The notes under the pieces: generated by a model
What the model was told of the DNA's origin: nothing
The model's input: the letters and a program-made list of their open reading frames with translations, nothing else
The model's database searches: none
Position numbers and translations under genes: made by a program
Part shown: positions 2,546 to 56,405 of the stretch, piece by piece
Layout of the letters: each line of letters opens with the position of its first letter
Position numbering within the stretch: the first letter of the stretch is position 1
Assembly: GCA_900548005.1 (NCBI GenBank)
Contig: URIZ01000009.1
Coordinates: 2,130 to 66,129, forward strand
Direction of reading: 5' to 3'
Source of the DNA: an uncultured Eubacteriales bacterium
Lineage (GTDB): Bacteria; Bacillota; Clostridia; Christensenellales; CAG-917
Length of the DNA stretch: 64,000 nt

Positions 2546-3232
2546 TTATTCTTTGTCCGCCGCAGCAACGTCAACGCCTGCGTCTTCAATAAGTTTTTGC
2601 GCGCCTTGAAGTTGTTGCGCTTTGAGAAGGTCGCGAATTTCACGGAGAAGATCGTCGGTGGTTTCAGGCTTTTCCGCTTCTGCTTTTGCAGCCGCTTCTG
2701 CCGCCGCCTGTTCTGCCGCTGCGTCACGAGCCGCCTTGATTGCGCGAAGTTCTTTCTTGGTTGCGATTTTGCCTTTGATTGTGGCTTTTTCTTCGGGAGT
2801 GAGCGATTCAAGGAATTTTGTGTCACGTCTAAGTCCCGTAAATCCGCCGCGCACCATATTGATGAGCTTGACCATTGCAAACAGCACAAGCGCGGTGATA
2901 AGGAAATTGATTATCGCCATTATGAACGCGCCCCAGTCGATATACACGGATTTTGTCATATCCACGACAAATTCCACACCTTTTTTTGCACATTCCGCCG
3001 CGGTGAGCCCTTCTGCGTTCTTTGCAACGAGCATGGTGATAAGACCTTGCAAGTCGCCCATAGGAATTGCGTTGATGAGCGGTTTGAATATGTTGTTGAC
3101 AAGCGCGGTTACGATTGCGGTGAACGCTGCACCTATAATCATACCAACGGCAAGATCGACAACGTTGCCCTTTGTGATGAATGCCTTGAACTCTTTCAAT
3201 AGTTTAAGTTCGGGCTTTTTGAATTTTTTCAT
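2546..3232 (-). CDS. mscL: large-conductance mechanosensitive channel MscL with a long C-terminal extension
   Basis: N-terminal FKAFITKGNVVDLAVGMIIGAAF signature and two TMs. It is 228 aa, with an extra Ala/Glu/Lys-rich helical tail. Confidence 0.85.
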   Translation of the reverse strand: MKKFKKPELKLLKEFKAFITKGNVVDLAVGMIIGAAFTAIVTALVNNIFKPLINAIPMGDLQGLITMLVAKNAEGLTAAECAKKGVEFVVDMTKSVYIDWGAFIMAIINFLITALVLFAMVKLINMVRGGFTGLRRDTKFLESLTPEEKATIKGKIATKKELRAIKAARDAAAEQAAAEAAAKAEAEKPETTDDLLREIRDLLKAQQLQGAQKLIEDAGVDVAAADKE

Positions 3233-9358: not shown

Positions 9359-9420
9359 AAAAAAGCACCCCCTTCGGAAGCACTTTGCAAAAGCCGAAAC
9401 CACGGCTGATTGTGAAGTCT

Positions 9421-9508
9421 GGAGTGGATACCGCACCGCGAGTTTTCTCTTCGTCCGCTGACACCCCACGTTCATACGGCACTTAACGCGCAATATCCTA
9501 CTACTTCC
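9421..9508 (-). promoter_or_regulatory. THF (tetrahydrofolate) riboswitch aptamer
   Basis: Minus-strand GGAAGUAGUAGGAUAUUGCGCGUUAAGUG...GAACGUGGGGUGUC...GACGAAGAG..CGCGGUGCGGUAUCCACUCC tracks the crystallised THF-I aptamer sequence as I recall it (GGAGAGUAG..CGCGUUAAGUG..GAAUGGGAUGUC..ACGAAGCGAG..CGCGGUG..CAUCCGCUCC). Confidence 0.8.
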
Positions 9509-17317: not shown

Positions 17318-17339
17318 ATACTGTTTTTCGCATGTTTTT

Positions 17340-17455
17340 TTGGCTGAGTTTTTCTCGTTTTTAATCCGAGTTTAGTCCGTTTTTAGTCCGAGTGTTGCTC
17401 TCTTTTTTTTATCCGAGTTTTCGTCCATTTTTAGTCCGAATTTTATCCGCCCTTT
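17340..17455. repeat. phased T-tract / TCCG repeat block
   Basis: Seven copies of TTTTTA(G/A)TCCGAGT-like units. The TCCG cores lie at 17365, 17376, 17387, 17412, ~17424, 17435 and 17446, mostly spaced 11 nt. Confidence 0.6.
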
Positions 17456-21191: not shown

Positions 21192-21219
21192 CCATCGGTC
21201 TCGACCGATGGTTTTTTTT
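21192..21219 (+). terminator. intrinsic terminator of the HU gene
   Basis: CCATCGGT-CTCG-ACCGATGG followed by eight T. Confidence 0.8.
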
Positions 21220-21833
21220 ATGAACAAAAGCAAGGAATAGCCCCTTGAACAGCAACCCTAATGTACTATGCGTGCATTTGTAAAAAATGCGATAAATCGA
21301 TGCATAACGCGAAAGCACCCCGAGAATGACAACCCTAATGTACTTACGTACATGAGTTGGCAGGCTCGGAGTACTTGCGTAATTAACTTTTCTCTCTCGT
21401 AAAAACGAAATAAATAGATAAAGAACAAGGAAACACCCATCCGAAACAAAACCCAACGTACTATGCGTACGTGATTTTGGAGCGGTTATTTGCTCACTAT
21501 CACACTTTCTCTCTCGTAAAAATGCAATATTGAGATGAAGAGCAAGGAAAAGCCCCTTGAACAGCAACCCTAATGTGCTGTATGCATTTGTAAAAAATGC
21601 GATAAATCGATGCATAACGCGAAAGCACCCCGAGAATGACAACCCTAATGTACTTGCGTACATGAGTTGGCAGGCTCGGAGTACTTGCGTAAGTAACTTT
21701 ACTCTCTCGTAAAAATGCAATATTGAGATGAAGAGCAAGGAAAAGCCCCTTGAACAGCAACCCTAATGTACTATGCGTACATGAGTTGATGGACAAGGGG
21801 CTTTGACAAAGCTATTCGCTCAATAGTGCATTT
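21219..21833 (-). repeat. six-unit array of the stop-codon-abutting hairpin element (two subtypes)
   Basis: Units at about 21219-21280, 21281-21398, 21399-21516, 21517-21590, 21591-21708 and 21709-21833. All share the CAACCCTAATGTAC-N-GTACATGAGTTG or AAAACCCAACGTAC-N-GTACGTGATTTTGG core. Confidence 0.8.
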
Positions 21834-24671
21834 TTACTCGGAGCGGAGAGCAATCGCCGGATCCTTCTTCGCCGCAATCCTTGACGGTATAAAACCTGCA
21901 AACATGCTAAGAAGGATGCTGATGGCAAACATGATAAGGCATTGCCACCAAGAGATAGACATAAGTCCGCTGATTTTGAAGATGGTCTTCAAGATTGCGC
22001 TGATGGCAAAGGAGAAACCAACAGAAATGACGATGCCGATAAGTCCGGAATAGCCGCCGAGAATGGCGGATTCGGCAAGGAAGACTCGGGATATATCCTT
22101 CTTTCTTGCACCGATCGAGCGGAGCACGCCGATTTCTTTTCTACGTTCAAGCACGGACGTGTAGATGATGATTGCAATCATTATGGTGGACACAATCAGC
22201 GAGATTGCCGCAAACGCAACAAGCACGCCTGTTATGGTGTTGACCATGGTGTTGACAAACTTCATAATGGTGGACAAGTTGTCGCCATAGCTGACGCTTG
22301 AACCGGTGTCTTTGTTGTATTGATTGATGAATGCGACAATCTTCTCTTTCGCCTCGAAGGACGAGCAGTAGAACTCAATGGACACAGGCTCTTCGAGATT
22401 TGCAACGCCGAGCTTTCTCATGATGGTGAGATCTTCGTTTTTGTTGTCTGCAAAGCTGATTTTGTTGCCTGCAAGCACCTTGATTTGCGTTCCGTTGTTG
22501 GTGGAATAATCAAAGTTGATGGGGCTGAGGTAGTAGTCGTAGTTGTCGTTGTCCGCCGCTTCTTTGAGAGCGTTCATTCTCACAACAGCCTCGTGCTTGC
22601 TTGCGCGCTCGATCAAAAGTTGCGTGAGCGCGGGCGTATAGCCCAGAACACCGTTGATTGACGTGACGGTCACGCCTGCTTTCGGACGAATGACGCCGAC
22701 CACTTTGACGGTGACGGGATCTCTCGAATCAATCCAGCTCTTGTTTTGTTCCGCATGATTGCGCCCCGTCCAAGTCTTGTCTTTCACGCCGTCGCCGTCC
22801 GTGTCAACCCACTTGTCCTCGGAGTCTTGTTCAAGATAATCGGCGTCCGAAATGACCTTGTATTCAAGCCCCAACAGCTCTTCTACGGACGTTTTGTAGT
22901 TTGCCCATTTCTTGTCTATGAGAGCTTTTATCACATCGTCTTGCGATTGAAGACCGAGCATGAAGAGTTGATAGTCAAGAAGTTGGTTGCTCTTGTCAAC
23001 AACAACCACCGTTTCGGTTGCGCTTGACGGCCAACGCGAGTTTTCACCCACAAGTTCGTATTGAGATTCGAGTAGCTTTTGGTTTGAGGACATCTCTGCC
23101 CATGAATTCATCATCGAACCGCCGTTTCTTGAGAACATGTTGAGCATATCGTTGAGCGACGAGCCGCCGATATCCATATTTTTTATATCGTCCGGCAACA
23201 CGTCAAGCACCGCATTCATTGTGTCGGCATAGGGGCTGACCTTCATATAGCGTTCCGCTGCCTTTTTTGCCTCTTCCAAAGTCGCTTCGGGATGTTCTTT
23301 CATATATTCGGCGACAATCTTGCTGTTGTTCGGGTCTTCCTTGAACGCATTGAAACTTACGCCGTAATTGTATTTGACAGTCGCAAGCGAGTCGTCAAAT
23401 TTTTCATCGATATACTTTTTGAGCTTGACAAGATCGTTTTCCGCAAGCAGCGTTCCGAGCTGATCAACCACTTTGCCGAGCATTTGTGCGGTGTAGATCT
23501 CATTGGTGTCGGGGTTTTCGGGTCTATCCGTCTCATTGTTCATCAACATGCCCAAAATTGCCGACGGATCGGTGTTTGTCTTGCTTATGGTCAGCGGATA
23601 GGTTGACAACGCGCTCTCTTCAAGCCCTCTGACATATCCCGCCGCGCCGTTTGAAAGGGACAGAACGAGAATTATGCCGATTATGCCGATTGAGCCCGCA
23701 ATGGACGTGAGCAGCGTGCGACCTTTCTTTGCGAGCAAGTTGTTCCAAGACAGATTGATTGCCATTGACAACTTCATCGCGCATTTGTCCGCTTTCTTAT
23801 ATTTTTTGAAACGCTCGCACAGCGTTTTTCTCTTTTTCTTGGGTTCTTCGGTCTTCTTTTCGACAATCTCGACGATTTCGTCTTGGGACAGCTCGCCCGC
23901 AACGTTGTCTCTTTCGATGTCTTCCACCGCTTCTTCCACAACGTCTTCGCCAAGTCTGTCTTCAAGTTCTTGAATCTCGTCCTTGGAATTGTACGGCATG
24001 GAATCACCCACAACTTCGCCGTCTTTCAAGTACACGATACGTGTGCTATACTCTTCTGCAAGTGAGGGGTTGTGCGTGACCATAATGACAAGCCTGTCTT
24101 GCGCCACTTCTTTGAGCAGATCCATGACTTGAATGCCCGATTCGCTGTCCAACGCGCCGGTGGGTTCGTCGGCAAGGATGATCTCGGGATTGTTGACAAG
24201 CGCACGCGCAATTGCCACTCTTTGCATTTGTCCGCCGGAAAGTTGGTTGGGCTTTTTGTTGGCTTGAGATGCAAGCCCCACCTTGTCAAGAGCCTCGAGC
24301 GCGCGACGCTTGATCTCTTCCTTCTCAACGCCGGCAAGAGTCAGGCTCATTGCCACGTTCTTGAGAATGTTCATGTGCGGAATAAGATTGTAGGATTGAA
24401 AAACAAAACCGATACGGCGGTTTCTATAAGTGTCCCAATCAACGTCGTCGTATGCCTTGGTGGACACACCGTCGATTTGGATGTCGCCGTTGGTGTAGCG
24501 GTCAAGACCGCCTATAATGTTGAGAAGCGTCGTCTTTCCGCACCCGGAAGGGCCGAGAATAGAGACGAATTCGTTCTTTCTGAACTCTATGGAAACGTTG
24601 TTTAACGCAAGGACTTTTTCTTCATCCTTGTCGATGACGTACTCTTTGGTTATATCTATAAGTTTAAGCAT
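21834..24671 (-). CDS. fused ABC transporter ATP-binding / FtsX-family permease (MacB-type)
   Basis: 945 aa. N-terminal ATPase ([35 protein letters not shown]), acidic linker, TM, large extracytoplasmic domain, C-terminal FtsX 3-TM bundle. Confidence 0.85.
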
Positions 24672-35262: not shown

Positions 35263-35712
35263 TTATGCCATTATGACAAATTTTATGATAAGCGCAGTGA
35301 TTGTCGCCACAATGCCGCTGCCCACAAACGCGCCAAGGAACGATGCAAAGAACACACCCACCTTGCTCGCCGCTTTTTGCAACTTGTCGTCACTGTCTTT
35401 CTTCTTTGCCTTTGGCTCTTTTTGAGCTTGCTCGGGCTGCTCTTGCACGACTTCCGCCTGTTGCATCTTTGCCCTTTCGTCAATGCGCTTGACAACCAAA
35501 AGGCAATATTCGTCAGGCGTGAAATACTTGACGGTGATGTATTCTCTGTCTTTAAGCTCGCGGATAATAGCAGACAATTGCACCTTTGTCAGAGCAATTT
35601 CTTTGGGCATTTTGTCGATGATTTCATCGGCTTCGACAATCTTATACACGTCGTTTTCGCCCGCAATGGAGCGAATGACGTCATACACCGTTTGACATTC
35701 GAGATTGAGCAT
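35263..35712 (-). CDS. small winged-helix-like protein with a C-terminal TM anchor (same architecture as 34754..35158)
   Basis: ATG 35712 is preceded by AAGGAGA. Layout: N-terminal domain, charged linker, C-terminal TM. Confidence 0.5.
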   Translation of the reverse strand: MLNLECQTVYDVIRSIAGENDVYKIVEADEIIDKMPKEIALTKVQLSAIIRELKDREYITVKYFTPDEYCLLVVKRIDERAKMQQAEVVQEQPEQAQKEPKAKKKDSDDKLQKAASKVGVFFASFLGAFVGSGIVATITALIIKFVIMA

Positions 35713-35835
35713 AACCGTCTCCTTATTGTTTCTAAAATAATAACATATTATAATAAATATAGCAATATTTTTTTGGACTCTCAACGGAATTATTGATTTT
35801 GAATAATGATGTAAAATTTGTTAAAAAACGTATAG

Positions 35836-36305
35836 TGCGGCACTTATACACACACTCTGCCTATTCGGAGTGTACTTATAAACGGACTGTGTAGCTTAAA
35901 AGACGGAACACGAGCCGCAAGGCGGCGAGCAAATCGAGCGTCGGACTTGACGGTTGTACGAGAATGCGTGGCGTTCTGTTGCGTAGCTGCCACGCAGGCG
36001 AAGTGGCACAATAAGAGAAATGGCGTAAGTTATGTCTCGACCGAGTGTTGTCCCCCGCTACGCGGTCACCGTGGGTTCCCTTTCAGGGGGAACGGTGATA
36101 GGGAAAACACCTGAGGAAAGGGGAAAGTTGCATTTAGAGTTTCAAACACTCACCCTTGTAGAGATAAAAAACAAAGCAAAAACTTATCGGGCGAAAAGAA
36201 GATTGCGCCTTGCGGCTGGATGTTTCGACAAGCTCAACATGACAATATAGAAAAATTTGTCATTTGCGCCCGTAATATCACTCATTTTAGTGTGCAAGCA
36301 GTGCC
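35836..36305. ncRNA. candidate large structured RNA or cargo segment of unknown class
   Basis: About 470 nt with no convincing ORF and many local perfect helices (TGCGTGGC/GCCACGCA, TCACCGT/ACGGTGA, GCCG/CGGC, CACTC/GAGTG). Closed by GGCACT(35839)/AGTGCC(36300) and CACACT(35851)/AGTGTG(36289). Confidence 0.3.
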
Positions 36306-36457
36306 TGACGCAGTTCGCCAACACTTCTATGATGACCGCGCCAAACGGATGAATAACAAGAAAGGCACTGTTTGAACCAAAACCCAACGTACTGAACGTA
36401 CGTGATTTTGGAGCAAGCAGTGCCTGACGAAGTTAGTCGCCGTTTGGCGCGGTCATC
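36293..36457 (-). repeat. hairpin element copy (subtype B) abutting the lysC stop codon, plus an upstream partial right arm
   Basis: 18-bp perfect inverted repeat 36331-36348 / 36440-36457 encloses AGGCACTG...AAAACCCAACGTAC-TGAAC-GTACGTGATTTTGG...CAGTGCCT. A 17-nt direct repeat lies at 36294-36310 = 36413-36429. Confidence 0.75.
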
Positions 36458-37757
36458 GGAAGGCGTTGTAAATGGAATTGATCGCCTTCTCATAATCAAA
36501 AGTGTCTACACCCACGATTATGTTCAGCTCCGATGAGCCTTGGTCGATCATGCGAACGTTGACGTTGTTTGCGGCAAGAGCGGAAAAGAGCGTGGCAGCC
36601 GTACCAAGACGAGATGCCATGTTGTGTCCGACGGTTGCGATGAGAGAAAGTCCGCTGTGGATCTCGATGTTGTCGGCGTTGATGGACTCTTGCAAGGAAG
36701 CAAGCACTTTTTGCATTTTGCCGGCGATGTACTCGTCACGGATGACAACGGAAAGCGTGTCTATGCCGCTGGGGACATGCTCGAAAGATATGCCTTCAAA
36801 CTCAAGCACGGAAAGCACTTTTCTGCCAAAACCGATCTCGGAGTTCATCATATCTTTTTCAACGTTGATGATTGTAAAGCCCTTTTTGCCGGCGATGCCC
36901 GTGATGACCTTGTTGTTTTTGGGCAAATCCTTTTCGGACACGATCATAGTGCCGGGGTGGGACGGGTTGAAAGTGTTTTTGATGTTTATGGGGATACCCA
37001 CGCTGCGAACGGGAAAAATGGACTCCGGGTGCAAGACTTCCGCGCCCATATAGGCAAGCTCTCTCAATTCTCGATAGCTCAAAAAGTCGATGATTTCGGG
37101 ATTGTCAACGATGCGCGGATCGGCGGTGAGAAATCCGTCAACGTCCGTCCAGTTTTCATAGATATCCGCGCCTATCGCGCGAGCAACGAGCGCGCCCGTG
37201 ATGTCCGAGCCGCCGCGAGAAAACGTGGTGATTTCCCCGTTTTGATTGCTGCCGTAAAAGCCGGGAATGACCGCCCTTTCAACGTTTTCAAGACGCTTTT
37301 TGATAAGGTCGAGCGAATAGTGCATTTGCAGTTTTTCGCCGTTGAATTTGACTATATCCGCCGTGTCGATAAACTCGTATCCGAGCTTTTTTGCAAGCAC
37401 GATTGCCGAGAGATACTCTCCCCTTGACGCCGCATAGTCCGCGGTTTTGCTTGCATCTATGCCTGCCTTGACTTTGTCAAGCACAGAGTCGATGTCAAGG
37501 TCAATGCCAAGCTCGAAGACGATGTCTTCAAAGCGTTTTCGCACCACCTTGAAGGTTTCGTCACAGTTGCCTTTTTCCATACGCTCGGAAAAGCATGCGT
37601 ACAAAGCGTCGGTGACTTTGACGTCCGCCTTGTTGCGCTTGCCGGGCGCGGACACAACGATGTATCGCCTGTCCTTGTCTTGATTTATGATGTCCACAAC
37701 GCGCGATATAGTGTCGCCGTTCGCCATGGACGTTCCGCCGAATTTACAAACTTTCAT
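36453..37757 (-). CDS. lysC: aspartate kinase
   Basis: KFGGTSMANG start motif, amino-acid kinase domain and C-terminal ACT pair. Start uncertain (37757 or 37775). Confidence 0.9.
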   Translation of the reverse strand: MKVCKFGGTSMANGDTISRVVDIINQDKDRRYIVVSAPGKRNKADVKVTDALYACFSERMEKGNCDETFKVVRKRFEDIVFELGIDLDIDSVLDKVKAGIDASKTADYAASRGEYLSAIVLAKKLGYEFIDTADIVKFNGEKLQMHYSLDLIKKRLENVERAVIPGFYGSNQNGEITTFSRGGSDITGALVARAIGADIYENWTDVDGFLTADPRIVDNPEIIDFLSYRELRELAYMGAEVLHPESIFPVRSVGIPINIKNTFNPSHPGTMIVSEKDLPKNNKVITGIAGKKGFTIINVEKDMMNSEIGFGRKVLSVLEFEGISFEHVPSGIDTLSVVIRDEYIAGKMQKVLASLQESINADNIEIHSGLSLIATVGHNMASRLGTAATLFSALAANNVNVRMIDQGSSELNIIVGVDTFDYEKAINSIYNAFR

Positions 37758-37801
37758 ATTTTGCCTTTTCGCCATTATATGCGGTCAACACAAAGCGTGA
37801 C

Positions 37802-39977: not shown

Positions 39978-40097
39978 TGACGTTTGCGTTGTCGTCATTG
40001 CTTTGTCAAGCGTTGCGTTGCCGCAATCGTTTTGTCAAACGTTGCGTTGTCGGCTTTGCTTTGTCAAACGCAAAGTTTTGCAGGCATTGCCGCCGCC
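39978..40097. repeat. about four tandem ~29-30-nt direct repeats
   Basis: GTCAA(A/G)CGTTGCGTTG(Y)CG...TTGCTTT units between the membrane-protein gene stop and the cdaA start. Confidence 0.6.
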
Positions 40098-41987: not shown

Positions 41988-42229
41988 ACTTTCATCGCGC
42001 CCACGCGCGTGTCCTACGATTTAGTTATATTATATGATAACATCAAATAGTCGTTTTGTAAATAAGGCGCGGATTAAAAAAAAATTTTAACCGCCTTTTA
42101 ATCTTGCCAAAAACGCGTTTTATGCCCCTATTTTGCAACTTGCGATGCAATCGGCAAAACAAAAACCGCCGAACATGTCGGCGGTCTTTGCTGTTTGACG
42201 GTTATCAAAACACAAAAGGGAAAAACAAA

Positions 42230-43393
42230 TTAGAGTGCGATTTCAACATCGCTTATGGGGTACGCCTTGCAAGAGTGGATGTATCCGAACATCTCGTCTG
42301 CGTGACGGAGCAACACTCCGCGCGGCATAAACACCTTGCCCGAAACAAGTTTCACTCTGCAAAGAGAGCACTCGCCCGATCTGCAACACACGTTGACTCT
42401 GATGCCCGCTCTTTCAAGAGCGCACAAGATAGACTCGTTGCATTTTGCGTCGATCACCTTGTCGCCCACTTTGAGCTTGAAGGTTTCTTCGCCCGTGAGC
42501 TCTTGGGGGAATCCCGGCTCGTTTTGGATGTCTTGGCGCGCGCCGAACATCTCGCGGCGAATGTCGCGGTGACGGACGTTCAAAGACTGCAATGCCTCCA
42601 CGCAAAAGTCCGTCATCACTTGCGGTCCGCAAAGATAGAACGTGGTTTTGTCAAGGTCTTTGACCACTTCTTTGATGCACTTTGCGTCAACAAAACCTTG
42701 TCTGTCGCCGCCCTTTGCGTCCTTGTCGGACAGCACCAAAGTGTATTTGAAGTTGGGATATTTGCTTGCAAACTTTTTGAGTTCTTCATTGAAGATTGCA
42801 ACTTCGGCATTTCTTGCGCCGTACAAGAGATAAATCTCTCTGTCAAGACCTTTTTCAAGCACTTCTCGTATCATTGACATAAACGGAGTGATGCCCGAAC
42901 CGCCCGCAAGGAACACCGAACGCTTGTAGTGGAAGACGGGGTTGAAGTGGAACACGCCCGCAGGGCCGTTGGCTTGGAGAGTGTCACCAACCTTTGCCTT
43001 GTCCAAGAAATAGTCGGACACAAAGCCGTCCTTGATGCGAGCCACGGTGATTTCATAATAGGCTCTTTGTCTTGGGGACGAGCAGATAGAATAAGGACGA
43101 GTGGTTCTCACGCCGTCGATTTCCACCGCAACGTTGATGTATTGTCCCGCTTCAAACGGCGGAAGGTATCCGTCTTCGCTGACAAAGCGAATGGTCTTTG
43201 CGTCTTTGGTGGCGCAAGTGATCTCGGATATTTTGAGATTGAGAATTGCAGGGTGAAGTTGATTGACGATTCTTTGCGTTCTGTTTTTGTCAAGAGAAAA
43301 GTCTTTGCCCACTTTTTCGAAAACGGCGATTTCGTTGAGAATATTCTTGCCGTTTTTCATCGTGCCGATGAGAGTTTCTTTTATGGTTTTCAT
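42230..43393 (-). CDS. FNR-like FAD/NAD(P)-binding oxidoreductase with a C-terminal 2Fe-2S ferredoxin domain
   Basis: RPYSICSSP (FAD), LAGGSGITPFMSM (NAD) and CRSGECSLCRVKL (plant-type 2Fe-2S). Confidence 0.8.
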   Translation of the reverse strand: MKTIKETLIGTMKNGKNILNEIAVFEKVGKDFSLDKNRTQRIVNQLHPAILNLKISEITCATKDAKTIRFVSEDGYLPPFEAGQYINVAVEIDGVRTTRPYSICSSPRQRAYYEITVARIKDGFVSDYFLDKAKVGDTLQANGPAGVFHFNPVFHYKRSVFLAGGSGITPFMSMIREVLEKGLDREIYLLYGARNAEVAIFNEELKKFASKYPNFKYTLVLSDKDAKGGDRQGFVDAKCIKEVVKDLDKTTFYLCGPQVMTDFCVEALQSLNVRHRDIRREMFGARQDIQNEPGFPQELTGEETFKLKVGDKVIDAKCNESILCALERAGIRVNVCCRSGECSLCRVKLVSGKVFMPRGVLLRHADEMFGYIHSCKAYPISDVEIAL

Positions 43394-43394
43394 A

Positions 43395-43592
43395 TTACTT
43401 CATCTCCTTCAAAATTCTGTTTGCGATCTTGTTGCCGTACATATAGTTCGGGCCGAAACCGCAAGTGTTCACCCAGCCTGACGCGAAATAGAGATTGTCG
43501 ATAAACATCTCTTGCGGGAAGAAAAACACGGAAGATTTGAGGTTCTGTTCATAGCCGTAAATCGCTCCGCCCGGGTGATGCAAATATCTCAT
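43395..43592 (-). pseudogene. 3' remnant of a CrtI-like NAD(P)/FAD-dependent oxidoreductase gene
   Basis: Only the C-terminal ~65 aa (HHPGGAIYGY...NLYFASGWVNTCGFGPNYMYGNKIANRIL) are present. The upstream sequence is the repeat element and then the next gene's stop. Confidence 0.5.
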
Positions 43593-43741
43593 GTGCGTAA
43601 TTAGAAGAACAATAAGCCTAATGCGGCTCTCGGCGTTGCTTGCTTGCAAGCGATGCCGTTGCCGCAATGACGGCTTTTGTTCGGGCGTACATGAGTTTAC
43701 GGGAGCATGGCTCTAACGCAGTTATTCGCTAAATAGTGCGC
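43593..43741 (-). repeat. rearranged hairpin element copy with a 63-nt apical insertion, abutting the ABC ATPase stop codon
   Basis: The right half is nearly identical to the 55.4-kb copy (GTACATGAGTTTACGGGAGCATGGCTCT..GTTATTCGCTAAATAGTGCGC). The left outer-stem partner is missing. CCTAATG and GTACATGAG are separated by 43624-43686. Confidence 0.7.
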
Positions 43742-44809
43742 TCACAGAACTTTGGAGAGGAAATCGCGCAACCTCTCACTCTCCGGGTTTTCGAAAATCT
43801 GTTGAGGAGTGCCTTGTTCGAGAATTTTGCCTTCTGCCATGAAGAAGATTTTGTCGGCGACTTCACGGGCGAATGCCATTTCGTGAGTGACGATGAGCAT
43901 GGTCATACCCTTGTTTGCGACACGCTTGATGAGATCGAGCACTTCACCGACCATCTCGGGATCGAGAGCGGACGTGGGCTCGTCGAAGAGCAAGACTTTG
44001 GGGGACATGGCAAGGGCGCGCGCGATTGCGACGCGTTGCTTTTGACCGCCGGAAAGCGTGGACGGATAGACGTCGGCTTTGTCGGACAAACCGATGCTTT
44101 CAAGCAGCTTGTCGGCGGTGATTGACGCGGCCTTTTTGATCTCTTTCTTGCTTGTGAATTGCAAAGGAGCAACGCTCTTTTGAGCAAAGGGAACGGTGCG
44201 ACCGATTTTGCGTTCGAGATTTTCCACTTTGTCGGTGAGAGCGAGCTTTTGTTTTGTGAGTTTTTTGTCGTAAGTGGCAAAGGGTTTGCCGCCGACATAC
44301 TTGATTGTTTTTGTTTCGTCCCACGCAGAAACGATAGGTTTAAGTTTGGTTTTGTAGTCTTCAAGTTGCGTTTGCAGCAAAACAAGCTTTTTGTCGATAT
44401 GCTTGTTGTATGCGTTGCCAAAGGCTTTGAACCATGCGTTGTGCAAAGGCACAAAAACGTTTTTAAGGCGAGTAAGGCGCATGTTTTTCACGCCGATTTG
44501 CACTGGCGCAAGCATGATATTTTCTTTGACGGTCATGTTGGAAAACAGGTTGAATTGTTGAAAAACCATACCCATTTTTTCACGCTGACGATTGATGTCC
44601 ACCTTCAAGTCCGCAAGGTCAACGCCGTCAAAAATGATCTTGCCCGCATTGGGGTCTTCAAGGCAGTTCAGACAGCGCAAAAATGTGGATTTGCCGCTGC
44701 CACTCGGGCCGATGATGGCAACCGTTTCCCCTTCTTCGATGCTTGCGGAGATGTCGTCAAGCACGAGAAGATCGCCGTATTTTTTTGTGAGATTGTATAC
44801 GTCTATCAT
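43742..44809 (-). CDS. amino-acid ABC transporter ATP-binding protein with a ~105-aa insertion
   Basis: [33 protein letters not shown] and LFDEPTSALDPE. An extra segment lies between the Q-loop region and the signature motif. Confidence 0.9.
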   Translation of the reverse strand: MIDVYNLTKKYGDLLVLDDISASIEEGETVAIIGPSGSGKSTFLRCLNCLEDPNAGKIIFDGVDLADLKVDINRQREKMGMVFQQFNLFSNMTVKENIMLAPVQIGVKNMRLTRLKNVFVPLHNAWFKAFGNAYNKHIDKKLVLLQTQLEDYKTKLKPIVSAWDETKTIKYVGGKPFATYDKKLTKQKLALTDKVENLERKIGRTVPFAQKSVAPLQFTSKKEIKKAASITADKLLESIGLSDKADVYPSTLSGGQKQRVAIARALAMSPKVLLFDEPTSALDPEMVGEVLDLIKRVANKGMTMLIVTHEMAFAREVADKIFFMAEGKILEQGTPQQIFENPESERLRDFLSKVL

Positions 44810-46481: not shown

Positions 46482-46723
46482 TCATAACAACTTTTGCATA
46501 TTTTTGCAACTGATTTTGCATATTTTTCAAATATTTTTTTATTTTTATGCAATATTATTTTTTATTCGGTATTTTTATGCAATAACTTGCGATTTTTATG
46601 CAAATATGCAATTTTAGCGGCGGAAAATAGAAAAATTGACGATTGACTACGCCTGATATATTGATATAATATTTATGACAAACTTGTTTTGAAAACGTAA
46701 CGGTTTTCTCAAAAGGAGCAATC

Positions 46724-55261: not shown

Positions 55262-55430
55262 AAAAACCACGATAAATAGATGAAGAACTTCGTGTATGTT
55301 GTAAAAAAGCGCGATAAATAGATGAAGAACAAGAAAGAGCCACGCTATCGGCAACCCTAATGTACAAGTAGTACATGAGTTGACGGGAGCGTGGCTCTGC
55401 CGAAGTTATTCGCTATTTAGCGCGCTTTTA
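55262..55430 (-). repeat. hairpin element copy (subtype A) abutting the dehydrogenase stop codon, plus an upstream partial unit
   Basis: Intact unit at 55301-55430: arms TAAAAAAGCGCGATAAATAGATGAAGAAC / GTTATTCGCTATTTAGCGCGCTTTTA, outer stem GAGCCACGCT/AGCGTGGCTC, core CAACCCTAATGTAC-AAGTA-GTACATGAGTTG. Duplicated left arm at 55269-55288. Confidence 0.8.
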
Positions 55431-56405
55431 GTCGCAGTTTATAAGAATCTTGCCATATTGCAACGGATATTTCACACACGATTCCACCACTTGCGGAATC
55501 TCTTCAAAGTTTGCGGTTGCGCCGATGAGGCCGTCGGTCTTCACCACTTTGTTGGCAAGAAGGTTGATGGCAGAAGACAATTCTCCGATGCCGTTGCACA
55601 CGCCTTTGAGAGTGAGTTGTTTTTTGAGAACAGTGCCTGCGTCCACTGCGTGTTTTGCGCGAGTGGCATAGCCTGCGATGATGACGTCGCCTTTGTTTTT
55701 GACAAGACGGATTGCCGCATTGACGTCCACGCTTTCGCCCGAGAAGATTGCCGCCTCAGCCATTCTGCCGCCGGTGATTTCTTCCACCCTGCGTTCGAGA
55801 TTGTCATAGGTCGGGTTGAGGGTGTAGCAAACGCCCCACTTTTGCGCAAGAGCGAGCTTGTCAACGTCCAGATCGATAAGGATGGGCACGTATTGATAAT
55901 ACGTTGCCATTTGTCCGAGAATAAGACCGAGCGTGGATGCGCCGACAATGACGATATAGTCGCCTTTTTCGCGGTCGAGAGCCTCAAAAACGTTGTTGCC
56001 CATCGCGATATACTCGGTGAACAACGCCTCCTCGTCGCTTATGCCGTCGGGAAGCGCGAAAACGTTTTCAAGCGGAACGCACGCAAAATCTCTGAGCAGT
56101 CCGTCAACGTCAACGCCCATGGTCTTGACGACTTCTTCGCCGTGTTCGCATTGTTGCAAATAGGGGCTGACCACAACGCGCGATCCGAGTTTGAGACCGC
56201 TATCATCGTCCGCCTCGCTCACAAGCGCGACCGCCGAATGTCCGGGAACAACCGCATCGTCCTTTGCCATTGCCGAAAGATTGCACACGTCTTGGGAAGA
56301 AATCGCCACTTTTGCGATTTTCACCTTGACCTGACCGTCTGCTCTTTGGCTTACGTCTTCAACGAGCGTTGCGCCGTCTTCTTTGTTTATAATCCATTCT
56401 TTCAT
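55428..56405 (-). CDS. zinc-binding medium-chain alcohol dehydrogenase family protein
   Basis: GroES-like N-terminal domain (VPGHSAVALV) and Rossmann VIVGASTLGLILGQ. Confidence 0.85.
   Translation of the reverse strand: MKEWIINKEDGATLVEDVSQRADGQVKVKIAKVAISSQDVCNLSAMAKDDAVVPGHSAVALVSEADDDSGLKLGSRVVVSPYLQQCEHGEEVVKTMGVDVDGLLRDFACVPLENVFALPDGISDEEALFTEYIAMGNNVFEALDREKGDYIVIVGASTLGLILGQMATYYQYVPILIDLDVDKLALAQKWGVCYTLNPTYDNLERRVEEITGGRMAEAAIFSGESVDVNAAIRLVKNKGDVIIAGYATRAKHAVDAGTVLKKQLTLKGVCNGIGELSSAINLLANKVVKTDGLIGATANFEEIPQVVESCVKYPLQYGKILINCD

Follow-up and report, generated by a model that had tools for sequence, protein, structure and literature searches.

A family of long hairpin repeats with the stop codon at the base, behind lysC and other genes of uncultured gut Christensenellales

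The window analysed here is a 64,000-nt stretch of contig URIZ01000009.1 (positions 2,130 to 66,129) from an uncultured Eubacteriales bacterium (Christensenellales, CAG-917), and the subject of this report is the interval directly behind its lysC gene. Coordinates are those of the window; the whole interval lies on the minus strand and is described in gene sense, that is, in the orientation of lysC. The lysC open reading frame (ORF), encoding aspartate kinase, occupies 36453-37775 on the minus strand, though the true start may be the ATG at 37757 or 37727. LysC homologues carry AA_kinase and ACT domains. With 92% and 88% identity, the closest relatives of the window protein have lengths of 424-434 aa, and their C-termini are conserved to ..IY(H/N)AF and then variable over 1-10 residues; neither the 440-aa nor the 434-aa version of the window protein had an exact counterpart on record. 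An earlier note on this DNA had described an 18-bp perfect inverted repeat enclosing the lysC stop codon, and the strings were confirmed: the sequence at 36331-36348 agrees without a mismatch with the reverse complement of that at 36440-36457, which includes the lysC TGA at 36453-36455 and, at 36456-36457, the last two bases of the final codon CGA (Arg). The sequence GATGACCGCGCCAAACGG has exactly two matches in the window, 36331-36348 (+) and 36440-36457 (-), against a chance expectation of 0.11, and two matches were obtained in 0 of 100 shuffles. The interval holds two units, one complete and one truncated; they belong to an undescribed family of repeats, ~130 nt long, that are imperfect palindromes.

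Read from the gene outwards, all on the minus strand, the complete unit begins with the gene-side (proximal) outer arm GA-TGA-CCGCG-CCAAACGG at 36440-36457, in which the outer GA closes the Arg codon and the lysC TGA is the first triplet of the arm proper, 16 nt ahead of conserved block 1 (CGACTAACTTCGTCAG, 36424-36439). The TAAC of block 1 pairs with the GTTA of conserved block 2 (TTTCTTGTTATTCATC, 36348-36363), and the remainder forms an internal loop. Between the blocks, at 36363-36425, lies the variable stem 2, CAGTGCCT/AGGCACTG, around a core hairpin of subtype B, AAAACCCAACGTAC-TGAAC-GTACGTGATTTTGG, at 36379-36411, with a GTAC stem, a 5-nt loop and a conserved 2-nt bulge; a second copy of this core, with 3 mismatches, is at 21448-21480. 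The unit is closed by the distal outer arm CCGTTTGG-CGCGG-TCA-TC at 36331-36348. The inner features previously reported, namely the mismatch block ATGAATAAC/GTTAGTCGC, the 8-bp stem AGGCACTG/CAGTGCCT (36363-36370 and 36418-36425) and the subtype-B core, are all present as described, as is the exact 17-nt direct repeat of 36294-36310 and 36413-36429 (chance expectation 0.01). This direct repeat arises because the interior of the first unit equals that of the shortened second unit at 36294-36322 on the minus strand, which consists of a block-1 remnant and a stem-2 arm (GTTGGCGAACTGCGTCAGGCACTGCTTGC) and is broken ahead of the core. The second unit that had been proposed here is a truncated one, and in two related loci (L007 and L137) it is longer at this place and continues into CCCAAAATCACGTA. 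The lysC interval folds in gene sense as a single hairpin, with an RNA folding energy of -74.4 kcal/mol (z = -11.7) and a DNA folding energy of -44.8 kcal/mol (z = -11.1). The copy ends with ...CGCGGTCATCATAGAAG, without a T run behind the distal arm, and a terminator scan of the sense strand flagged the inner core alone. Thus, the lysC copy is not a canonical intrinsic terminator; the G+C-rich stem followed by a U tract expected of Rho-independent terminators was not found in it.

Four loci of the family are located in the window, all on the minus strand and directly behind minus-strand genes, and at all four the stop codon of the gene is the first triplet of the gene-side arm. In addition to the lysC copy, these are a full copy at 55301-55432 (TAA 55428-55430 of a Zn-dependent alcohol dehydrogenase-like gene), an array at 21227-21839 made up of one full unit and five partial ones (TAA 21834-21836 of a fused ABC/FtsX transporter gene) with a bidirectional terminator behind it at 21192-21211, and a half copy broken in the GTAC core at 43684-43744 (TGA 43742-43744 of an ABC ATPase gene). 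The window was compared with related loci or contigs, which are given L-numbers, and an nhmmer profile of the element generated 256 matches in 2.43 Mb of these. A degenerate pattern, which matches every known full copy and nothing in shuffles, was used for a census; this is a pattern-selected sample from at least 120 metagenome contigs (mostly human gut) plus related genome loci, not a whole genome, and it yielded at least 152 distinct full copies. The lysC copy fits the census pattern exactly and can be aligned with the other copies from end to end; it is an ordinary member of the family. The genes in front of the census copies are likewise ordinary: lysC, recR, ychF, iPGM, amine-oxidase-like and SPFH/Band-7 genes, and ABC transporters.

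The hairpin units are carried by a lineage of Christensenellales that is uncultured and lives in the human gut. Among GTDB contigs with one genome per species, the closest lysC (92% identical) was that of Christensenella sp. nC33_lr_bin.267 (accession no. CP091723.1), a chromosome of 1.65 Mb. When the element profile was run on lysC loci, copies were found only in the nearest relatives (L001-L009, L011, L012 and L017) and none in loci with lysC at or below 70% identity, so that the carriers among lysC loci are confined to the lysC-near clade of Christensenellales. Viral contigs scanned with the element pattern gave no match. A search of the window against Rfam 15 at the gathering score matched a tetrahydrofolate (THF) riboswitch elsewhere and nothing in the hairpin, nothing credible appeared over 35300-36500 at E ≤ 1, and eight related loci gave only a T-box. 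Literature searches returned no description of the hairpin repeat family.

All units share one order in gene sense: outer arm of 15-19 nt, block 1, variable stem 2, core hairpin, stem 2′, block 2, outer arm′. Block 1 is CGAATAAC TGCGTCAG and variants (pattern CGMMYARC TKYRKMAR), block 2 is TTCCTTGTTCTTCAT and variants (pattern TTYCDYGYTMTBCATC), and the core hairpin, of which there are at least three subtypes, combines an invariant GTAC stem with a 2-nt bulge that is conserved. In the census alignment the consensus fold contains 38 pairs, 31 of which show changes on both sides, and one-sided changes are nearly absent. The outer stem is 84% Watson-Crick paired in the census. A mismatch recurs at its position 8 in 75 of 151 copies, the lysC copy being without it, and in 27 of 152 copies the outer stem runs for 16-20 bp without a mismatch; a perfect 18-bp stem is therefore normal where the position-8 mismatch is absent. 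Stem positions 9-13 and the inner 8-mer vary among copies by both-sides changes, and sequence conservation sits in the internal blocks. Arms whose stop lies 18 nt before block 1 (d = 18) have the consensus T-A-A-R-A-N-Y-G-C-R-C-T-A-W-W-K-R-G, in which AARA (positions -17 to -14) is nearly invariant in both arms; position -13 varies strongly but is paired without exception. In the conserved mismatches, pyrimidine faces pyrimidine on the sense strand, and purine faces purine on the antisense strand. A small antisense ORF starting at ATGAAGAAC was considered and rejected: its ATG is ATA in some copies, its length differs and it has no ribosome-binding site.

An ORF of at least 100 codons ends at the element in 115 of 152 census copies, and in 82 of ~129 first units block 1 follows the stop codon at a distance of 15-20 nt, which peaks at 18 nt (42 copies) and at the 16 nt seen behind lysC (21 copies). 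The ORF runs deeper into the arm in 15 copies, stopping at d = -4 to 11, and of the 37 copies without an ORF, 23 are directly behind another unit. Orientation is strongly one-sided, the ORF end at the element being in gene sense in 108 copies versus 13 with an opposite-strand ORF, and in L145 there are two copies, one per strand, each of which follows a gene of its own. The stops of element-abutted genes are TAA in 72, TGA in 15 and TAG in 0 cases, versus 363, 340 and 68 for element-free long ORFs of the same contigs. The outer arm of the family thus begins with T[AG]A, which is an in-frame stop in about two-thirds of first units, so that inclusion of the stop in the repeat is a property of the family and not specific to lysC. 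Ordinary terminator hairpins are located downstream of units, at 21192-21211 in the window and behind the arrays of L144 and L008, indicating that the units sit inside 3′ untranslated regions (UTRs). In one orthologous gene of ~940 codons (L008 1427, L096 2815, L102, L107 and L123) the frame crosses the element arm and ends at a TAA inside block 1, so its last seven residues (K-x-x-L-x-x-E/A) are repeat-encoded and differ between genomes.

The 18-bp repeat at lysC had been taken for host sequence copied in inverted form, with its presence at many unrelated loci named as the finding that would speak against this. From outside in it consists of GA, TGA, CCGCG and CCAAACGG. The inner 12-mer, CGCGCCAAAC[AG]G, also occurs in copies at the unrelated loci L101, L186, L187 and L201, so the inner 12-13 of the 18 bp are family sequence, and the lysC copy of L003 has ...GCGCACCAAACAG. 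Further out, TGACCGCG followed by 8 nt and block 1 is found both at lysC orthologues and behind an SPFH/Band-7 gene in L130 and L145, where the TGACCGCG arm is closed by CGCGGTCA, and TGAC[CG]G[CT]G arms are present at further genes in L120 and L147 (ychF). In the lysC orthologue of L145 the gene has its own TAA seven bases earlier and the TGA of the arm is out of frame; the T[AG]A at the arm start is also unused or out of frame in L090 and in an L008 copy 30 nt downstream of lysC. Every base of the lysC arm can be aligned with the outer arms of all other copies. The exact 18-mer was found at the lysC locus only, which is due to its two outermost bases plus the particular combination of modules. 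Repetition at unrelated loci thus holds for ~16 of the 18 bp, only GA/TC being clearly mirrored from lysC, and a host origin of the repeat as a whole is not supported. From these comparisons, the outer arm including its first triplet is most likely family sequence, and the lysC TGA probably arrived with the arm of the element.

The opposite assignment, in which the element ends inside the stem and the outer repeat, stop included, is host 3′ sequence that fold-back synthesis copied distally and inverted on arrival of the element, much like an inverted target-site copy, would account for several of the same data. Outermost arms are common to orthologous loci with differing interiors, such as TGACCGCG at lysC in the window, L001, L007, L137 and L144, and TAAGAC/TAAGAG at the amine-oxidase gene in L111, L143 and L140. 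Window lysC and L201, which both have CCAAACGG + CGACTAAC + B core, differ at their outer ends, and each matches its own gene end; the paired variability of position -13 and mirroring that reaches into coding sequence point the same way. This explanation nevertheless appears unlikely to us, since AARA after the stop is nearly invariant at unrelated loci while just 11% of gene ends without an element read TAARA, TAA is in excess among the stops and TAG is missing, the TAA/TGA at the arm start is kept even out of frame or unused, TAARA is absent at three of four empty orthologous sites, and TGACCGCG arms recur at an unrelated gene.

Host bases are mirrored to a smaller extent, throughout the family. 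In 76 of 87 copies all three bases of the stop codon are paired. Pairing extends past it, into the coding sequence, by 0, 1, 2, 3 and 4 bases in 24, 28, 13, 6 and 5 copies, against geometric expectations of 57, 14, 3.6, 0.9 and 0.2, respectively. Any extension past the stop was seen in 52 of 87 copies, as opposed to ~15 when gene ends were paired with the distal flanks of other copies. An inverted copy of 7-13 nt of the last codons (mismatches and gaps allowed) is present in the distal flank of six of 76 copies (L122 iPGM, L155, L111, L139 recR, L201 and L202), versus a permutation mean of 0.6 and maximum of 3.1. Thus, of the earlier proposal that the host 3′ end is copied into the distal arm, mirroring beyond the stop survives as a family-wide effect above chance.

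Comparison of orthologues gave the direction of copying. L111 and L143 share the same last five codons and the inverted copy is in L111 alone; with identical coding sequence and a differing distal flank, copying went from the coding sequence to the distal flank. At lysC, ...CAA TGA is paired with TCA TTG(T) in L144, ...CGA TGA is opposite TCA TT in L007 and L137 (a G.T state), and ...CGA TGA is paired with TCA TC in the window and L001; judged by these sequences, the distal flank has followed the last codon among orthologues. In the ~940-codon gene, a synonymous change of TTA to TTG in L008 is mirrored in the distal arm. Asymmetry of wobble pairs as expected from selection at the RNA level was looked for in outer-stem mismatches and is absent, G.U-type mismatches being equal on both strands (73 vs 71). 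Co-variation without intermediates, the lack of wobble strand bias and outward growth fit templated copying at the DNA level, and this is the mechanism to which the alignments point. The arms would be kept complementary by copying one from the other, likely by replication template switching or hairpin-templated repair; template switching is known to create, repair and lengthen perfect stems (PMC8794818). Because the gene-side arm is bound by the reading frame, changes would become fixed distally. Such copying would lengthen the palindrome so that it takes in a few bases (now and then 7-13) of the coding end, and at lysC would have added 2 bases. The most likely consequence would be a very stable 3′-UTR hairpin whose base is opened by the terminating ribosome, and which would affect mRNA 3′-end stability and possibly termination efficiency.

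A stop codon at the base of such a stem might itself be the function, the unit being an RNA device (3′ stabiliser, terminator, attenuator or termination brake) maintained by selection on the RNA. The strict orientation relative to the upstream gene would suit a device of this kind, as would the T run of at least 4 at the distal-arm end in 44 of 82 copies. The stop-to-block-1 distance of 15-19 nt is about the length of mRNA covered by a ribosome downstream of the A site, which we also count in its favour, and REP hairpins near stop codons reportedly lower translation in E. coli through ribosome stalling and tmRNA. We regard it as highly improbable all the same, given the lack of a G.U excess on the sense strand, the better folding of the antisense strand, the missing T tract of the lysC copy, the ordinary terminators behind units and the lack of an Rfam match; nor would it by itself explain the spread of the units or the swapping of their interiors.

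Whether the units are transposons of a common type was judged from their borders. A transposable element of the miniature inverted-repeat kind (MITE) derived from an insertion sequence (IS), with a stop codon in its terminal inverted repeats (TIRs) and moved in trans, would survive mainly where its TAA or TGA can replace the stop of a gene. Size, hairpin shape, copy number and 3′-end location resemble those of Correia elements, RUP and Coxiella QMITEs, and the 15 copies into which a gene reads (ending at d = -4 to 11) could be explained in this way. However, direct repeats outside the inverted repeat are 0, 1 or 2 nt long in 49, 24 and 9 of the 82 stop-abutting copies and never 3 nt or more, which is chance level, so no target-site duplications (TSDs) were found. 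The sequences of the arms also differ from copy to copy, in contrast to the conservation expected of TIRs bound by a transposase. No transposase domains were present in the genes adjoining the copies at the four window loci, and no element halves flanking an ORF in the 2.43 Mb of related loci. The first triplet is in frame in 82 copies, far above the one-third expected for frame-blind insertion. We therefore consider such a MITE quite unlikely. Duplication of TA as by IS630-like elements was rejected separately, as there are no direct repeats, the distal TTA is followed by A in only 6 of 39 d = 18 copies, and TGA...TCA ends are impossible by that route.

Sites without the element were found, as the earlier note had suggested looking for, with host protein ends unchanged, but the loci were too diverged (~75% nucleotide identity) for junctions to be read. 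L010 has no element behind the ABC/FtsX gene, which ends ...RSE TAA as its filled orthologues do. In L003 none follows the ABC ATPase gene, which ends ...KVL TAA, whereas the window and L007 have ...KVL TGA and then the element. L009 and L010 have none behind lysC. TAARA is missing at three of the four empty orthologous sites. Since the empty orthologues have the same C-termini, the element leaves the protein end unchanged and begins exactly at the stop codon. A pre-existing host terminator hairpin as source of the outer stem was rejected, as no hairpin is located at the stop in the empty L010, L003 and L009. Of two further pairs, L179/L008 diverges inside block 1 and L158/L189 has unrelated filler where the element would be.

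The lysC copies have a B core in the window and L001 and an A core in L007 and L137, within the same TGACCGCG clamp, and truncated units break in the GTAC core (at 43684 and 36294 in the window, and in L007). Directly behind the half copy at 43684-43744, the window contains a 1.65-kb segment (42070-43722) with an FAD/NAD/2Fe-2S oxidoreductase gene. L007 lacks this segment there, and in L003 and L006 it lies inverted with respect to the ABC ATPase gene, so that the hairpin core coincides with a rearrangement breakpoint.

We put the probability at roughly 0.7 that these data are best read as a whole in the following way: the lysC interval holds a copy of a repeat family whose arms are kept complementary by copying at the DNA level and whose stop-codon register is a property of the family. 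Several observations weigh against this. No clean case of a closely related filled and empty pair, from which the exact insertion junction could be read, was found among 207 loci. The near-invariant AARA after the stop might reflect a target preference and not element sequence. The near-identical strains L003 (11320-11412) and L006 (11320-11413) have the same flanks, outer arms and blocks, and their ~58-nt interiors (stem 2 and core subtype) are wholly different, which suggests a cassette-like exchange at the conserved blocks that simple template switching leaves unexplained. The conserved mismatches (stem position 8, block 1/2 internal loop and core bulge) persist despite the proposed copying, so that they must be under the protection of selection or of a binding protein. 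Folding of the strand antisense to the upstream gene is on average 5.3 kcal/mol more favourable than that of the sense strand (116 copies vs 33), a poor fit to a plain mRNA-hairpin role. Finally, the census proportions are estimates, because the pattern was built from known copies and the counts cover the matches listed only. A further proposal is that the units are a novel type of mobile DNA integrating exactly at stop codons without TSD, the T[AG]A merging with the stop and fold-back turning host bases into palindrome, the interior being swapped cassette-like at the blocks by a site-specific activity whose target would be the folded single strand, and a second repeat (R2, see below) being a partner that targets the 3′ flank. 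It is an improbable one in our judgement.

By analogy, the hairpin family would behave like the class of interspersed palindromes that includes repetitive extragenic palindromic (REP) sequences and MITEs. With REP/BIME and REPIN of Proteobacteria it shares extragenic palindromes interspersed in transcribed 3′ regions, single or arrayed and near stops, with structure conserved above sequence and possible effects on mRNA stability and translation. REPs are 20-40 nt long, have a conserved GTAG end and are linked to RAYT (Y1) transposases, whereas the present family has a ~130-nt unit with two internal-loop blocks and a GTAC core, holds the stop in a fixed register as the first stem triplet and occurs in Clostridia. 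Correia elements (NEMIS) of Neisseria and RUP of Streptococcus pneumoniae are likewise co-transcribed intergenic palindromes of ~100-150 bp that give long RNA hairpins. These elements have conserved TIRs and an IS630-type TA target duplication; the present family is without TSDs, and its distal TTA is not followed by the A that would be expected. Where overlap with gene 3′ ends is concerned, the closest likeness is to QMITE1 and QMITE2 of Coxiella burnetii, hairpin-forming repeats at gene 3′ ends with an associated second element (the mobile IS1111 with QMITE2, R2 here). QMITE insertions in functional genes are all at 3′ ends, overlapping the C-terminal coding end by 1-50 bp (PMC5896051). QMITEs differ in having TIRs and direct repeats, in contrast to the variable arms, fixed stop register and missing direct repeats of the present family, and the sequences are unrelated.

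Integron attC sites are also imperfect palindromes directly behind a stop, with fixed orientation and with structure and a few unpaired positions conserved over a varying sequence, and some block-1 variants (GCCTAAC) fit the RYYYAAC inverse core, TAAC pairing with GTTA. However, the conserved boxes of attC (R′′/R′ core sites) form the foot of the hairpin and have no pairing beyond them, whereas the blocks described here are enclosed by an outer stem of 15-19 bp. Block 2 (GTTCTTC/GTTATKC) misfits GTTRRRY, the genes are scattered housekeeping genes and not cassettes, and no integrase was seen. Template-switch (quasipalindrome) mutagenesis shares reverse-complement copies, one-step stem repair and stem lengthening with the family (PMC8794818, PMC7202029). 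Being a mutational process, it explains the upkeep and extension of stems, and not the spread of units or their anchoring at the stop.

If this picture of the family holds, a gut Clostridia lineage with small genomes carries perhaps 100 or more very stable hairpins, an extrapolation from four loci in 64 kb, each with a stop codon at its base. The lineage would then offer a natural system for the spread of palindromic repeats without the usual hallmarks of transposons, for template switching that keeps long stems perfect and extends them into coding sequence, and for the question of whether a stop buried in a stem of -50 to -75 kcal/mol affects termination, ribosome rescue and mRNA decay. The hairpin repeats and R2 are also likely to break assemblies and to confuse gene-end calls in metagenome-assembled genomes of Christensenellales.

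R2 is a repeat of about 320 nt (~310-335 nt) with 88 profile matches in the 2.43 Mb of related loci. In the window, a copy is located just downstream of hairpin units at 35824-36158 on the plus strand; others are in L007 (11624-11933), L017 (1146-1346 and 9778-10096), L012 (three copies), L191, L203 and elsewhere. Among long copies, 39 of 45 are downstream of a hairpin unit, 27 of these within 150 nt, in either orientation. R2 contains conserved co-varying hairpins with GNRA-like loops and swapped variable modules and gave no match in Rfam; it may represent a structured RNA of unknown kind or else a non-autonomous element targeting the 3′ flank of the hairpin. A block of ~530 nt consisting of the truncated hairpin unit and R2 (window 35803-36330) follows lysC in the window, L007 and L137 and is missing from L001 (compared at 3047-3081) and L002, whose lysC is equally close (92%), and a near-complete version was found at another locus in L203.

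Elsewhere in the window, three tandem 29-nt units (TTGCGTTGYCG...GCTTTGTCAARCG) and two clusters of T-rich short direct repeats were noted (39984-40070; 17331-17455; 46491-46603). The THF riboswitch aptamer identified by Rfam lies at 9414-9507 on the minus strand, with 61 bits against a gathering score of 36.

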